From a virus, in the UHGV virus genome UHGV-0207576: a stretch of DNA of 19,100 bases; one strand, written 5' to 3'. Shown here one piece after another: positions 12,879-18,747 of this stretch. The position numbers and the translations under genes were made by a program. Position 1 is the first letter of the stretch, and every line of letters begins with the position of its first letter. A model generated the notes under the pieces. The model made no database searches. It was not told the DNA's origin and saw nothing but the letters and a program-made list of their open reading frames with translations.

Positions 12879-13118
12879 TTATTGCCATACGACGGTGCAG
12901 CCGTCGATACAGGACGTTTTCACCACGCGGCGCAGGCCGCTGAATGTCTGGATGATTTCCGTTACCGGCCATACAGGGCCGCCCACGGGCGGGCAGGCAT
13001 AAACCACAGGTAAACGGTGATGTTGCCCAGTTACGCGACCGCCGGTGGTGTGGATGGCCACACGGGCACGGGAACGGACGGCGTTAATGGTCTGCTTGTC
13101 CATCATCTTGTTCTCCAT
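12879..13118 (-). CDS. Hypothetical early-region protein
   Basis: 79 aa ORF immediately downstream of the B-like gene. Confidence 0.4.
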   Translation of the reverse strand: MENKMMDKQTINAVRSRARVAIHTTGGRVTGQHHRLPVVYACPPVGGPVWPVTEIIQTFSGLRRVVKTSCIDGCTVVWQ

Positions 13119-14011
13119 CAGTGAATTAACATTTCTGCGAATTTATCAATGGCCTGCACACTGACCGGTGCATCGCTGATATCACAAATCCGGTACACAC
13201 CGCGAGCCAGTTTGAACAGGCGGCGGGCATTACCCAGTGAGCGTGCGTAGAGCGCCTCGCTGATTTCCGGTTCTGCTGCTTCCGGCATCAGCCCGGTAGC
13301 TATCTGGTTAAAATCTTCCTGCGACAGCGTATCGCCCAGGTTAAGCGCCAGCGCCACACGGCTGTATAACTGGGCGAACTCACCGCGACGTCCCTTGAGG
13401 TTAATCAGAAGGCGTGGCATACCCGCCAGGACAATCCCGATACCCGCTTTGTCATGCAGACGGCGCAGAACCTCCAGTGCGCGATAGGGGAGCAGTTCAG
13501 CCTCGTCCACCATCAGCAGGCGACCGGAATCACGCAGTTCTCGCACACATGCATCAATCAGTTCGTGGATATTGCCGCGAACTTTTACCCCCAGCTGGCG
13601 GCACAGCTCCTCAAGCAGTGTTCTGGCTGTATAGCCCGGGTCGGCTTCAATCAGGACCGCATCCCGGTTTCTGGCGGCGTATTCACGCAGAATCATTGTT
13701 TTGCCAAGACCTGCCGCGCCATACAGTACGCAGATTTCACATTCCAGGTGAGCATAGGCCAACACCTCCAGTCCTTTGGCAGCCATACCGGTGGCAACAA
13801 ATTTCGCTTTAATACGGCGGCTGTTTTCCTTTTCCCGCTCACGGGTCACAAAGGCAGAAATGCGTTCTTCAATATCAGCCATATCGCCCTGATATTTACC
13901 CTGTAAATACTGGTTGATAACGGCGCTGCTACGACCAATAGCACGGGCGACGTGGGTTTGCGTATAGCCGCGACGGGCCATTACGTCATTTAATTGCGTA
14001 ATTAAACTCAT
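13118..14011 (-). CDS. MuB-like transposition target-DNA activator (AAA+ ATPase with N-terminal HTH)
   Basis: 297 aa; N-terminal HTH (YTQTHVARAIGRSSAVINQYLQGK), Walker A GAAGLGKT, Walker B LLMVDEAE; lies directly after the transposase gene as in Mu. Confidence 0.85.
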   Translation of the reverse strand: MSLITQLNDVMARRGYTQTHVARAIGRSSAVINQYLQGKYQGDMADIEERISAFVTREREKENSRRIKAKFVATGMAAKGLEVLAYAHLECEICVLYGAAGLGKTMILREYAARNRDAVLIEADPGYTARTLLEELCRQLGVKVRGNIHELIDACVRELRDSGRLLMVDEAELLPYRALEVLRRLHDKAGIGIVLAGMPRLLINLKGRRGEFAQLYSRVALALNLGDTLSQEDFNQIATGLMPEAAEPEISEALYARSLGNARRLFKLARGVYRICDISDAPVSVQAIDKFAEMLIH

Positions 14012-14029: not shown

Positions 14030-16072
14030 TTAACGGTTGTTTGTGCCGTTTTTCTTTAAATTGCGTTCGCGTTCAGATGCGAATAAATAAAGTTCTTCTT
14101 TTTCCTTTTTCTCCAGGCGTTCCAGTCCATATCCCAGATTAAAGTCAGGCTTCTGCGTAATGGCCGGGGTAAGCTCGCGTTTAGCCTCTTCGATTTTCTG
14201 CGTGGCCCGTGCAATGCGGCCCTTGACGCGTTTCTCCAGTTTTTGTTCGATAACTGGTTTAGCGAAGGCATCAACCTTGTTACCGTTCCAGATGGCATCG
14301 CAGATATAAGAGCCATCAGCCCGCCGGACAATGACGCTGTTTGCATCATGAATATCGTAACTGACCCTGACTTCATTCCCGTGCTCTGCGGCCAGATCAT
14401 ATGAGTAATAAATATTGTTGAATAACTGAATTTCCCCGCGAAATGTTTTGCGCGTCACTTCCGGCCTGAACATTTCATGCAGTTCTTCCGGCGACAGGAA
14501 ATCAATTTCAACATTCTGCTCTTTTATCAGTTTCCGGCGATACGCTGCCGGGCTGTAATGCTCGCCATCCTCTTTGCGAGGAAGGCTGCTGTGTGGCCGG
14601 TTGTTATAGCGTCTGACCTCCAGCTCTATGGCTGCCATCAGTTGCTCAAAGGTAGGGATTTCATCCCTCGCCTTAACCTGCCGTTTTGTCAGCTCTTTCC
14701 CTTTGTGGGTGGCCTTAATGGCTGACTGCATAATCCGTTGCTGCATCATTACGGTTTCCTTGTCTGCATCCCTTGCGCAGTACGTTTGGAAACTCAGGGC
14801 CACGTCTTTGGGTATTTCCTTGTTAACCCTTTCAATCACCCCGCGCCCCTGCGGGTTACCTGGTATCCCCGTGTGATGTTCCACACCCAGACGGGGCAGA
14901 ATCCCGGTAATATCGGCATCAAGCACCAGGTTTTTTTCGCCGCCCCCGTTATCGGAGTAATAAATCAGCGGTATCCCGTGCTGTGCCATGCCGTAACGTA
15001 ACGCATCAGCAACGGCTATCACGTTCTCCGACAGGGACAGTGACCAGCCCACAATAAAGCGTTGTCCTGCATCCATAACCAGCGTCACTTCTGGCCGGAA
15101 AATATTGCCGGTCAGGGGGTTAAACGCGGTCATTTTCATACAGTGACCATCCCCGACCCATACCGCATTAACCGGTAATGATGTCCACTCGCGCCGCACA
15201 AAGGGATTGAGCGAACGCCAGGCTGAACCTGTGGAGCGGAAACGCTCTTTAACAATCACCGGGACGCTGCTTAACACCCGTCTTACTGCGTGAACTGAAG
15301 GCAGTGCCGCCAGCATTCCCGCATCGTTCGCGTGTTTTTCATGCCACCAGGCTGAAAACTCGCGATACGCATATTCAACGGTCGGGCGCTTCCATGAGCG
15401 ATAGAACATAAAGAAATCGCTCAACCACCAGACCTGCTCCCACGGTGTTCCCTTATGATGACCGGGAGCCAGTAACGCCAGTAACTGATTGGCATCACCG
15501 CGCGCCATCACCCAGCTGGAGTACCAACTATCCAGGCTGCCTGTGCTGACACCGGTTCGCTTTCCCTGACGTGCATTTGCAGTATTAGCTGCTTCGATAA
15601 TGCGGTCAGGTAACGCCCCCATGCGCACACCATCAACGATGTGCTTTAACGCGGCCTTCCTTGTCATTCCGGCGTATTCACGCAGTTTATGCACTTCAGT
15701 AGCCAGCAATATCCGCGCATCAGCGATGGCCTTTTGCTTGTCAGTCAGTGCCTGGACTTCGCGTAATGCCAGTTCCGGGCATTTGACCATCACCTCCAGT
15801 TCATCGCGAACGGCGACGTTTTTAACTGCCTTCTGCTCAACCACGGCGGGCAGTTGCGTATCTTCCAGGACCTGATGGGTCAGGCGCTTACGTAAAACTT
15901 TCTGCGCTTCAGCGGGCAGGCAGTCGATGTGATACTCGAATGCTTTGGTGCCTTCACGCTTGCGCTTCCATTCCGGGTGCGTCTCTGTGATCCGATTGAG
16001 CGTCCAGCGCACCCCCTGAACTGTACCGGGCAAACCAGGAAGACCGGCCAGCTCATTGGCTGAATAAAACAT
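14030..16072 (-). CDS. MuA-like DDE transposase
   Basis: 680 aa; N terminus LAGLPGLPGTVQGVRW...TKAFEYHIDCLPAEAQ parallels the MuA end-binding winged-helix domain (ANLPGLPKTSAGV...KAIEYNANSLPVEAK); central DDE region with VWVGDGH; TAATG overlap with Ner-like gene. Confidence 0.9.
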   Translation of the reverse strand: MFYSANELAGLPGLPGTVQGVRWTLNRITETHPEWKRKREGTKAFEYHIDCLPAEAQKVLRKRLTHQVLEDTQLPAVVEQKAVKNVAVRDELEVMVKCPELALREVQALTDKQKAIADARILLATEVHKLREYAGMTRKAALKHIVDGVRMGALPDRIIEAANTANARQGKRTGVSTGSLDSWYSSWVMARGDANQLLALLAPGHHKGTPWEQVWWLSDFFMFYRSWKRPTVEYAYREFSAWWHEKHANDAGMLAALPSVHAVRRVLSSVPVIVKERFRSTGSAWRSLNPFVRREWTSLPVNAVWVGDGHCMKMTAFNPLTGNIFRPEVTLVMDAGQRFIVGWSLSLSENVIAVADALRYGMAQHGIPLIYYSDNGGGEKNLVLDADITGILPRLGVEHHTGIPGNPQGRGVIERVNKEIPKDVALSFQTYCARDADKETVMMQQRIMQSAIKATHKGKELTKRQVKARDEIPTFEQLMAAIELEVRRYNNRPHSSLPRKEDGEHYSPAAYRRKLIKEQNVEIDFLSPEELHEMFRPEVTRKTFRGEIQLFNNIYYSYDLAAEHGNEVRVSYDIHDANSVIVRRADGSYICDAIWNGNKVDAFAKPVIEQKLEKRVKGRIARATQKIEEAKRELTPAITQKPDFNLGYGLERLEKKEKEELYLFASERERNLKKNGTNNR

Positions 16073-16308
16073 TACGCCGCCTTACTGGCATACCGGCTTG
16101 GCCAGATCTCCGCAGGTTCCACACCAATAGCATCGGCTATGATGCGTTCATATTTAGGGCATGAGCGATACAGTGCATTTTTTAAAGAGTCTTTTTTTAG
16201 ACCAGCGCGTTCAGAAAGTTCACGCAATGTAAAACCTTTGGTGTGCACAGCGGCAACGATGTACTCGCGGTGCCAGTCTTTGTTCATTACTTCATTTCTA
16301 ACCATCAT
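16072..16308 (-). CDS. Ner-like DNA-binding regulator (Ner/Nlp family)
   Basis: About 78 aa from ATGATG at 16303-16308 with AAGG RBS; WHR...LSERAGLKKDSLKNALYRSCPKYERIIADAIGVEPAEIWPSRY closely parallels Mu Ner. Confidence 0.8.
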   Translation of the reverse strand: MMVRNEVMNKDWHREYIVAAVHTKGFTLRELSERAGLKKDSLKNALYRSCPKYERIIADAIGVEPAEIWPSRYASKAA

Positions 16309-16490
16309 TAGGTTACCCTTAAAAGTTATCCGTGCGGATAACACCGCCGTGTTATCCCTTCGGATATAAGTATTGATCCATATATAGCTCATGTAAAGCA
16401 AAAATAGCCCTTTCTTTGTATTTTCTTTTTGCTTTTGGTCTTTATATGGTTTTTGTAATTAAAATCAATAAGTTATAGAGGAAAGAAAAA
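16309..16490. promoter_or_regulatory. Divergent early control region (Pe/Pc-like) with candidate operators
   Basis: Two palindromes, GTTATCC-N4-GGATAAC at 16325-16342 and GTTATCC-N4-GGATA at 16351-16366, centres 26 bp apart; CTTT-rich repeats 16411-16436; TTTACA and TATA-like hexamers on both strands. Confidence 0.5.
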
Positions 16491-17138
16491 ATGACTAGAA
16501 ATGATGATGCTTTTTCTTTTGTCGACCGGGGAAAAGAAAGTTTCAGAGAGCGTTTAGTAAAGCTGATAGGTAACCGTAGTGTCAGAACTGCTGCGAGTGA
16601 TTGGGGAATCCCCCCTTCAACCTTAAACAACTACATTCATAAAGGAACAGAGCCTTCTTTTAAAATAGCTTGCCTTATCTCAGATAAAGAACAAGTGAGC
16701 TTAAATTGGCTCGCTTACGGTGAGGAACCCATCGCCAAAGAAAGTTCTCTATCAAATCAAACAGCGCAGCCTTCTCCCGATATTACAAACGAGCTAGTTA
16801 ACGAGTTATTGAAAAGAGCGTCCACAGAAGATAAGGAACAGTTGATAAGTGCAATATGCGATATGGGCATTAAAGGAATCTTGGAACGCCTACAGCAACC
16901 CACCAGGCAAACTAAGCAAGCCGATAGCGAACTTGAGGAGCAAAGAAAGGCCATTCAAAGCCTGAACATCAGGCAATCGCTTAAAGACGCTGTTTGCATG
17001 GCATTAGCTGGCGATGAGGAAAATGACAAAGAGATTTTGCGCCGCGCCAAAGCCATTTTCTGTGCTGGAACACCAGGTGATCGCGTTCCCGTCACACCGG
17101 AGCAAGAAACTAAGCCTGTAAACAAGAAATCAGCATAA
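16491..17138 (+). CDS. Prophage repressor (c-like) with CI-type HTH domain
   Basis: 215 aa; N-terminal ...SDWGIPPSTLNNYIHKGTEPSFKIACLISDKEQVSLNWLAYGE matches the 186/P2 CI-repressor HTH pattern; divergent from ner-A-B and pointing to the prophage end, as Mu c does. Confidence 0.75.
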   Translation: MTRNDDAFSFVDRGKESFRERLVKLIGNRSVRTAASDWGIPPSTLNNYIHKGTEPSFKIACLISDKEQVSLNWLAYGEEPIAKESSLSNQTAQPSPDITNELVNELLKRASTEDKEQLISAICDMGIKGILERLQQPTRQTKQADSELEEQRKAIQSLNIRQSLKDAVCMALAGDEENDKEILRRAKAIFCAGTPGDRVPVTPEQETKPVNKKSA

Positions 17139-17298: not shown

Positions 17299-17450
17299 GC
17301 GCCCAGAAAAAAGCGCAAAAAAAAGCGTTTTTGGTCATTTCTCACAAATCCGCCCAGAATCACGCTAAATCACCACACCCCGCGCCACACAAGGCTTGCC
17401 GGTTCTACCAGGCTGCACTAACTCCGCCCAGAATTGATCACTACCCCACA
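17299..17450 (-). repeat. Prophage left end (attL-like) with three direct transposase-binding-type repeats
   Basis: Plus-strand cores (g/c)cgcccagaa at 17299-17308, 17350-17359 and 17424-17433 (TTCTGGGCG in element orientation); spacing resembles Mu L3, L2, L1; sequence ends ...cca-ca at 17448-17450. Confidence 0.55.
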
Positions 17451-18025
17451 ATTCCCGGAAGATTTAGTGGATTAAAAAGAAGATTGATATTAAGCATTGA
17501 TATTATCGAAGGAAACTTTAGGAGACTCTCATTTTTTTGAATCGCAGCAAAAATGCTCCCGACAGGATGTATATAATTTTGTTCATAGTATATAGTCCTT
17601 AAATAGTGAATAACCAACCTGTTTTTTATACTGATCAAATTGGTCATTTTTTCTGGGCGAAATACAGAAGTGACATCCATTCCAATAAAATCTTTATTTA
17701 TACCTCTTATCCGAATTTCACTACCATAAAGATTATTAATTATTACTCTATATTTAACATTGTCCTGCAGATATGTATCAAAACTAAGTGCTGGCGCTCC
17801 TGGCTTTGAGGCATCATAGTTAATGTTAGACATATAGGCAATCATATAATTAAAGTTTGATTCTGCTATTTCATCGCAGTCACATTGACCCGTTGATATA
17901 AAGAAAGTGAGTGCTGTCATAGTAGACTGCAGCCTTTCTTTAAAAGAGTCGAAAGCCAGGCTTTTAATATTTAAATCACCATAATTACTCTGTATTAAGT
18001 TTGTAGAAAACATCTCCCGCCTCAT
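17441..18025 (-). pseudogene. AT-rich host ORF apparently interrupted at its 3' end by the prophage insertion (possibly ydjO-like, unverified)
   Basis: 194-codon ORF begins 277 bp from cedA and reads straight into the predicted prophage terminus, stopping 3 codons inside it; markedly AT-rich compared with the prophage. Confidence 0.45.
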
Positions 18026-18301: not shown

Positions 18302-18544
18302 TTACTCAGTCACTTCCCCTTCCTGGCGGATCTGATTTGCCCAACGTTGGGCAGATTCAGGCACAGTAAACGCCGGTGAGCGCAGAAATGACTCTCCCAT
18401 CAGTACAAACGCAACATATTTGCCACGCAGCATCCAGACATCACGAAACGAATCCATCTTTATCGCATGTTCTGGCGGCGCGGGTTCCGTGCGTGGGACA
18501 TAGCTAATAATCTGGCGGTTTTGCTGGCGGAGCGGTTTCTTCAT
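18302..18544 (-). CDS. cedA: Cell division activator CedA
   Basis: Translation MKKPLRQQNRQIISYVPRTEPAPPEHAIKMDSFRDVWMLRGKYVAFVLMGESFLRSPAFTVPESAQRWANQIRQEGEVTE matches E. coli CedA as I recall it (80 aa); an upstream in-frame ATG at 18565 would give 87 aa. Confidence 0.85.
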   Translation of the reverse strand: MKKPLRQQNRQIISYVPRTEPAPPEHAIKMDSFRDVWMLRGKYVAFVLMGESFLRSPAFTVPESAQRWANQIRQEGEVTE

Positions 18545-18747
18545 TACTGGCTTCACTAAACGCATATTAAAAATCAGAAAAACTGTAGTTTAGCCGATTT
18601 AGCCCCTGTACGTCCCGCTTTGCGTGTATTTCATAACACCGTTTCCAGAATAGTCTCCGAAGCGGGATCTGGCTGGTGGTCTATAGTTAGAGAGTTTTTT
18701 GACCAAAACAGCGGCCCTTTCAGTAATAAATTAAGGAGACGAGTTCA

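Follow-up and report, generated by a model that had tools for sequence, protein, structure and literature searches.

We find that two tandem palindromes upstream of the small regulatory gene ner probably constitute the Ner operator of an uncharacterised lineage of Mu-like phages, and would serve to repress the early promoter of these elements. The palindromes lie in a 19,100-nucleotide stretch of viral DNA (UHGV-0207576), which is referred to in its entirety as the window. Directly observed are the features of the sequence, how they are conserved and how they are linked to ner; from these we infer the promoter, which protein binds and the regulatory effect. In the mechanism that we propose, four copies of the heptamer GTTATCC/GGATAAC together form the operator of Ner, a small Cro-like repressor of the HTH_35 family, and the resulting array would run from directly after the -10 element of the predicted early promoter (Pe) to the ribosome-binding site of ner. 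Ner produced from the early transcript would fill this array as monomers, covering the transcription start at the palindrome designated P2 and the leader at that designated P1. Filling of the array would turn down Pe, and hence ner, the transposase gene A, and B, so that the lytic/transposition operon would be under negative autoregulation of the kind seen in Mu and D108. Unrelated CTTTCTTTT/AAAGAAAG repeats would most likely be the sites at which the divergent 186-CI-type repressor works.

A Mu-like prophage lies in the window in reverse orientation, represented by its left (immunity) end. Open reading frames and Pfam domains bear out the gene layout given in the initial annotation of this DNA, namely MuB, MuA, a Ner-like gene and a divergent repressor:

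13118-14011, minus strand: MuB-like AAA ATPase in the MuB position (Pfam PF13401, AAA_22)
14030-16072, minus strand: MuA-like transposase (Pfam PF09299, Mu-transpos_C; PF02316, HTH_Tnp_Mu_1; and rve)
16072-16308, minus strand: ner, 78 aa, HTH_35 family (Pfam PF13693, E 6.8e-26)
16491-17138, plus strand: divergent immunity repressor, 215 aa, with a 186-CI-type N-terminal HTH (PHROG 3037)

The neighbourhood of ner is that expected of a Mu-type element, with the HTH_35 gene followed by MuA and then by the ATPase in the MuB position. The Ner sequence is identical to RefSeq WP_000989761.1, which is annotated as Ner in other E. coli genomes. Conservation of the N terminus (MMVRNEV/MERNEV) in relatives supports the RefSeq-annotated ner start at 16308 over the alternative ATG at 16287. 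The MuA protein is only about 23-30% identical to its Mu counterpart, and its N terminus keeps a DNA-binding domain of the Mu I-alpha type (BLAST to D108 c 4.5e-7 and to Mu c 4.8e-4).

The prophage ends at about 17450, where likeness to other copies of the element ceases. A minus-strand open reading frame of 194 aa (17441-18025) that lacks a Pfam match is located at or beyond this end, and the host gene cedA (18302-18565) lies outside it. The closest E. coli match to the window is in EPEC E2348/69 (99.3% identical). Of 5,426 complete E. coli genomes, 49 contain related elements, EPEC E2348/69 and several STEC strains among them. These E. coli relatives are chromosomal in every case, and the host neighbour genes differ among the six loci examined, as expected of a transposable phage. 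Relatives are also found in the Yersinia pestis phages vB_YpM_5 and vB_YpM_6. In the record for vB_YpM_5 (L003, 2945-3529) ner, A and the repressor have all been deposited as 'hypothetical protein'.

The array between ner and the repressor gene comprises two dyads and a more degenerate heptamer:

16325-16342: P1, perfect dyad GTTATCC-GTGC-GGATAAC, consisting of two Ner-type heptamer half-sites
16351-16368: P2, imperfect dyad GTTATCC-CTTC-GGATATA, in which the right arm has 5/7 matches
16312-16318: fifth, degenerate heptamer, GTTACCC on the plus strand and GGGTAAC in the ner sense, read from the sequence

P1 is a perfect 7-4-7 dyad that also admits an 8-2-8 reading, and it lies 17 bp from the ner ATG (16308). 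The initial annotation described twin inverted repeats 26 bp apart, centre to centre, upstream of the Ner-like start. This description is confirmed by the sequence, in which the P1-P2 distance is 26 bp whether measured start to start or centre to centre, and by shuffled controls. The 18-mer dyad pattern, allowing up to three mismatches, has four matches in the window compared with a shuffle mean of 0.64, and none of 200 shuffles reaches four. Exact GTTATCC is present in seven copies in 19.1 kb (1.8 expected; 0/200 shuffles reach seven), three of which fall inside 33 bp at the array.

The orientation of the arms alternates across the four heptamers, and the inner pair GGATAACAC-GGCG-GTGTTATCC is also palindromic. 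Because these inner arms pair, the whole of 16327-16366 forms a single larger imperfect palindrome. The fifth heptamer is positioned 13 bp from the left arm of P1 and overlaps the ner Shine-Dalgarno sequence AAGGG (16316-16320). Its 13-bp register matches that of the direct-repeat arrays found with a second group of Ner proteins (group 2, the MERNEV clade described below), and this heptamer might tentatively be counted as an additional unit of the array.

The array abuts a predicted promoter:

16369-16397, minus strand: predicted sigma-70 early promoter Pe, with -35 TTTACA (16397-16392), a 17-bp spacer and -10 AATACT (16374-16369)

Pe is the sole good sigma-70 match on the ner strand and has the best minus-strand score (9.0). 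Relatives keep the sequence GATCAATACT of the Pe region almost unchanged, with a -35 element of TTTACA, TTGTAA or TTTACT at a fixed distance, so that Pe, as predicted, appears to behave like a real promoter. P2 abuts the Pe -10 and spans about -6 to +12 of the predicted early transcript, P1 is at about +21 to +38, and the ner ATG is near +55. The array (16325-16368) thus lies between the predicted Pe -10 and the ner ATG, a layout that is shared with Mu and D108. The best candidate for the repressor promoter Pc (16435-16465, plus strand, score 8.9) sits about 100 bp from the array, and weaker candidates are present within the 5' end of ner.

The predicted Pe spacer contains a conserved GATC (Dam site, 16375-16378) directly before the -10. 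Mu has no GATC at the corresponding promoter position, and GATCAATACT is near-invariant across all Ner clades of the family. By analogy with IS10 this GATC may confer methylation-sensitive promoter activity, or it may be part of a protein site.

Scans based on Ner and on the repressor identified about 35 distinct upstream sequences of related Mu-like loci originating from E. coli, Edwardsiella, Sodalis, Yersinia phages and IMG/VR contigs. The initial annotation had suggested looking for the motif in related Mu-like elements, and we find that the four heptamer half-sites are kept across these approximately 35 loci, with spacers that vary. In an alignment of 19 diverse relatives the four half-sites are kept, separated by variable spacers and followed by the ribosome-binding site, giving the consensus GATCAATACT..TATcc..A.gGATAAccC.g..G..TTATcC...cgGaT.AACTTTT.AGggTAa. 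P2 is retained in these 19 sequences as TATcc..gGATAA. Among relatives the P1 spacer is found as GCAC, GTAC, GCGC or GTCC, and the P2 spacer as GAAG, GTAG or GCAG. In the copies from genomes of the insect symbiont Sodalis (L009 and L010) the heptamers are eroded (GTTATCG-GTAC-GCCTAAC, with 2 bp deleted from P2) and the transposase matches are truncated, consistent with these copies being decaying prophages.

The heptamer persists where the arrangement of the array does not. In the MERNEV Ner clade (recognition helix SPDTLKNALAR) the two dyads are replaced by three copies of CGGATAAC in direct orientation with a period of exactly 13 bp, located about 60 bp upstream of ner (L159, L168, L169, L176 and L182, all IMG/VR contigs). 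The putative operator is in this way rebuilt with a different half-site orientation within one protein family. In the clade with recognition helix GQNNLYNAVYR, rather than KKDSLKNALYR, the array reads GTTATCA-AATT-TGATAAC. At position 7 of the preserved half-sites C has become A and, symmetrically, G has become T, although some arms are partly degenerate; both the 18-bp dyad length and the 26-bp spacing are retained. These comparisons favour the heptamer, and not a hairpin, as the unit that is recognised, and hence a site that would be read by protein. The half-site core GTTATC is common to Ner clades with differing recognition helices, so specificity is not fully explained. More distant Ner clades have their own dyads at the early promoter, AGCTCTATAGAGCT in L133 and TCTAGCTC-AATC-GAGCTAGA in L135 (both IMG/VR). 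These AGCTC-type palindromes resemble the GAGCTAC arms of the D108 Ner operator, a hint that a half-site may be shared in that branch.

The same comparisons bear on the possibility that the palindromes act as RNA, through a stem-loop in the leader by which the early transcript would be stabilised or the ribosome-binding site of ner hidden. The fold of the window leader reaches -24.9 kcal/mol (z = -4.9), which none of 200 shuffles equals. However, this fold needs the central palindrome, a feature missing from Yersinia-type relatives, and the group 2 leader folds differently and weakly (z = -2.0). The direct CGGATAAC repeats of that group make a hairpin impossible there, yet the heptamer is retained. 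Furthermore, all four arms have a single sequence in common, which a hairpin does not need, and an Rfam search of the leader matched no family (best 17.7 and 15.2 bits, compared with gathering scores of 94 and 57). We consider an RNA element improbable and rejected it because relatives do not preserve the fold and the repeats of group 2 are direct; in the window element the fold could nevertheless have a secondary effect.

Array identity correlates with Ner identity across 136 pairs (Spearman 0.74). The partial Mantel rho for array against Ner is 0.70, a value reached by 0/2000 permutations, although co-inheritance is partly expected from linkage alone, without function, because the array is adjacent to ner. 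The corresponding partial rho is 0.12 for array against the MuA N terminus and -0.01 for array against the N-terminal domain of the repressor. Individual pairs of elements separate the three proteins as follows:

Window and L001: Ner 100%, MuA N terminus 100%, repressor domain 51% identical; array identical
L106 and L003: Ner 100%, MuA N terminus 99%, repressor domain 53% identical; array of the same type
L164 and L173: Ner 100%, MuA N terminus 95%, repressor domain 49% identical; array of the same type
L176 and L159: Ner 97%, MuA N terminus 64%, repressor domain 41% identical; array of the same type
L164 and L001: Ner 50%, MuA N terminus 44%, repressor domain 65% identical; array different

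Between L164 and L001 the repressor-side DNA is 72% identical as far as -64 from the ner ATG, where homology stops. The breakpoints of blastn alignments delimit an exchanged segment:

16388-16861: exchangeable immunity cassette, containing the putative repressor-side operators and repressor codons 1-124

Other E. coli prophages have in its place an allele that is too divergent for blastn alignment, with about 51% protein identity in the DNA-binding domain, whereas the flanks of the exchanged cassette are 98-99.6% identical. The palindromes are outside the cassette, the left edge of which falls just short of them, between the -35 and -10 elements of Pe. On these comparisons the array follows the ner gene, and not the repressor or the MuA N terminus.

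This pattern argues against binding of the palindromes by the 186-CI-type repressor, for which they would be the immunity operators that hold Pe off in the lysogen. P2 overlaps the predicted Pe start, which would be a good place for a lysogenic repressor, and the CI protein of phage 186 binds inverted repeats. However, the array is constant across repressor N-terminal alleles that are 41-53% identical and changes where the repressor cassette stays homologous. In addition, each cassette has separate CTTTCTTTT/AAAGAAAG repeats, which overlap the Pe -35 and recur in the gene, beside the invariant recognition helix STLNNY, and one HTH is unlikely to read both these motifs and the heptamer. We rejected the repressor as the palindrome-binding protein on the cassette-swap and correlation evidence, and judge this assignment to be distinctly improbable. 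The initial annotation had envisaged a hybrid switch involving either Ner acting on dyad sites, which is the version favoured here, or a palindrome-binding CI-type repressor, which conflicts with the cassette swaps. Its premise that palindromes are un-Mu-like is not borne out. Non-palindromic operators are a property of the Mu c repressor; the Ner operators of both D108 and Mu are dyads at the same position as those of the window, so palindromes are to be expected here and are no sign of a palindrome-binding repressor.

Another protein might bind the heptamers, either host DnaA or the I-alpha domain of MuA, in which latter case the array would be an enhancer. We regard this as very improbable indeed. 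In the ner sense P1 reads TTATCCGCA, an 8/9 match to the DnaA box TTATCCACA, but box positions 7-9 fall in variable spacer columns; a DnaA box was rejected because the 9-mer TTATNCACA is not conserved in relatives, which keep TTATCC alone. MuA retains its Mu-c-like N-terminal domain without having a homologous repressor partner here, as might suit an enhancer-binding role. Nevertheless, the array is kept between elements with MuA N termini that are only 64% identical, in line with the low partial rho given above, and the Mu enhancer coincides with the c operators and not with the Ner site.

The initial annotation assigned the repressor a CI-type (186/P2-like) HTH in preference to a Mu Rep-type domain, an assignment supported by Pfam, hhalign and the absence of BLAST matches to Mu-type proteins. 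The repressor matches Pfam PF07022 (Phage_CI_repr) at E 2e-6 (28.5 bits; gathering cutoff 22) and PHROG 3037 ('transcriptional repressor') at 4.5e-58. Its family profile aligns by hhalign with residues 13-72 of phage 186 CI at E 3e-4, with a probability of only 40%, and shows no relation to Mu c in the same type of comparison (probability 0.4%). BLAST of the repressor detects no match to window MuA or Mu c at E up to 10, and only a chance-level match to D108 c (E 1.9), whereas the positive comparisons of Mu c with Mu A and of D108 c with D108 A give 1.6e-13 and 9.5e-16, respectively. As the repressor and the MuA N terminus are not homologous, the Mu-type pairing of repressor and transposase domains is absent here. 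The C-terminal part of the repressor has no PDB match by sequence search and no detectable similarity to 186 CI.

The repressor side of the control region, including the start of the gene, contains the following elements:

16395-16449: CTTT/AAAG-type repeats, present in every cassette type
16395-16404: AAAGCAAAAA, which overlaps the predicted Pe -35 and pairs with TTTTTGCTTT at 16426-16435
16410-16418: CTTTCTTTG, CTTT-rich tract
16421-16429: TTTTCTTTT, CTTT-rich tract
16463-16475, plus strand: match AATCAATAAGTTA to the IHF consensus WATCAANNNNTTR, just upstream of the repressor Shine-Dalgarno sequence, read from the sequence
16512-16540: dyad TTTTCTTTT-N11-AAAAGAAAG in repressor codons 8-17, a candidate autoregulatory or flanking operator

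The CTTT-rich tract that had been noticed nearer the repressor gene is real and is enriched over shuffles, with 15 matches to CTTTCTTTT at one mismatch or fewer (5.9 expected; 0/200 shuffles reach 15). Repeats of the CTTTCTTTT/AAAGAAAG type are found in every cassette, one of them overlapping or adjoining the Pe -35, and the recognition helix STLNNY is invariant in every repressor allele of the family. At the in-gene dyad, alleles that are only 33-50% identical in protein preserve the motif at the DNA level but encode different peptides across it (FSF, LSF, LSL or IAF), and Lys-Glu-Ser is encoded as AAA GAA AG(T/C) in the repressor alleles that retain these residues. The CTTTCTTTT/AAAGAAAG repeats, including the in-gene dyad, are likely to be repressor operators. 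The CTTTCTTTT repeats possibly serve the transposase as an enhancer, additionally or instead. The recognition helix of the repressor and the N-terminal motifs of MuA are both nearly invariant across the family, and for this reason the repressor and the MuA I-alpha domain are not separable as the CTTTCTTTT binder.

The IHF-consensus match recurs at the same place in most of the otherwise divergent cassette types. The sequence ATCAATA within this match is an inverted copy of TATTGAT (16370-16376) in Pe. In vB_YpM_5 (L003) the repressor has been annotated with a start, ATGAATCATATAGTTAAC, at the position of the IHF-like element, and the true start may be further downstream.

The proposed Ner operator follows an arrangement that is known for Mu-type phages and does not overturn current understanding. 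The sequence of the site is new and its architecture is one of modular heptamers, and a non-Mu-type repressor lies alongside. The analysis provides a concrete and testable operator map for an uncharacterised family of Mu-like prophages. If both dyads and 13-bp direct repeats are read, Ner would be a monomer that oligomerises on DNA, and the orientation of operator units would be free to evolve. D108 Ner is reportedly monomeric and oligomerises on DNA. For work on the reading of short-site arrays by a Cro-like monomeric protein, the family provides a natural series that encompasses dyads, direct repeats and a symmetric half-site change found together with an altered recognition helix.

A further question raised by this family is how the enhancer function of a Mu-type transposase operates beside a repressor of unrelated fold. 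The Mu repressor and transposase have homologous DNA-binding domains with which they contest a single operator/enhancer, whereas in the lineage described here the corresponding domains of the two proteins have unrelated folds. It is conceivable, though we think it rather unlikely, that the classical Mu coupling has been broken in this widespread enterobacterial lineage, that the 186-CI-type HTH and the Mu-c-like MuA I-alpha domain have converged on the CTTTCTTTT repeats, and that Ner, separately, reads a heptamer array capable of being rebuilt as dyads or as 13-bp direct repeats.

Known Ner operators provide the closest precedents for the window array. D108 (L153, 996-1025) has a dyad CCGTGAGCTAC-TTTATAGC-GTAGCTCACGG, with an N8 spacer, about 25 bp before ner. 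Mu has inverted 12-mers, AGCTAGCTAAGT-TTTTAC-ACTTAGTTAAAT (N6), between Pe and ner, in a stretch labelled 'Ner binding region' in GenBank record AF083977. We take CCGTGAGCTAC-N8-GTAGCTCACGG of D108 and AGCTAGCTAAGT-N6-ACTTAGTTAAAT of Mu to be the footprinted Ner sites (Tolias & DuBow; Kukolj et al.). The window array has no sequence resemblance to the Mu site (ANPyTAPuCTAAGT) or to D108 CCGTGAGCTAC, which is expected of Ner proteins that are only 43-50% identical (for window Ner, 43% with Mu Ner and 50% with that of D108) and is not class-defining. The window array consists of repeated dyad-symmetric elements that are conserved with their cognate Ner, as would be expected of a Ner operator.

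D108, like the window, has a small HTH_35 Ner protein and a dyad operator between the early promoter and ner. The D108 operator is a single 11-8-11 dyad of unrelated sequence, whereas that of the window would comprise four to five 7-bp units including two 7-4-7 dyads. The D108 repressor is of the Mu type and homologous to the MuA N terminus, which the window repressor is not. Mu has the same gene order as the window (c, operators, Pe, Ner site, ner, A, B), but its Ner site is unlike the window array in both sequence and geometry. In Mu the Ner site extends over the repressor promoter Pc as well, whereas the best Pc candidate in the window is about 100 bp from the array, a difference that counts against our reading. 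The IHF-like match near the repressor Shine-Dalgarno sequence recalls the IHF site of the Mu operator region.

Phage 186 CI shares its N-terminal HTH family with the window repressor, but with only 25% identity over 60 residues, and phage 186 is a P2-like integrase phage whereas the window element is a transposable Mu-like phage. The candidate in-gene dyad at 16512-16540 recalls the FL site of phage 186, which is located within the cI gene itself and is annotated in the phage record as 'CI binding sites'.

The closest solved homologue of window Ner in the PDB is EnrR of Edwardsiella piscicida (7f9h, E 5.8e-17), with Mu Ner (1neq) matching at E 9e-13. EnrR is a nucleoid-associated global regulator that binds AT-rich DNA with closely packed half-sites, and it binds a palindromic duplex as two monomers (PMC9023278). 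The DNA with which it was crystallised, CGAAATATCTATAGATATTTCG, contains TATC...GATA, like the core of the window heptamer, and binding is lost once the half-sites are moved 4 bp apart (PMC9023278). The half-sites of the window, unlike the closely packed half-sites of EnrR, have centres 11 bp apart, a spacing that weighs against Ner as the binder, and a GC-rich 4-bp centre. The EnrR residue in contact with the G of GATA, Arg47, corresponds to Asp40 in window Ner, which likewise weighs against this assignment, whereas EnrR Asn51 and Arg55 are conserved as Asn44 and Arg48.
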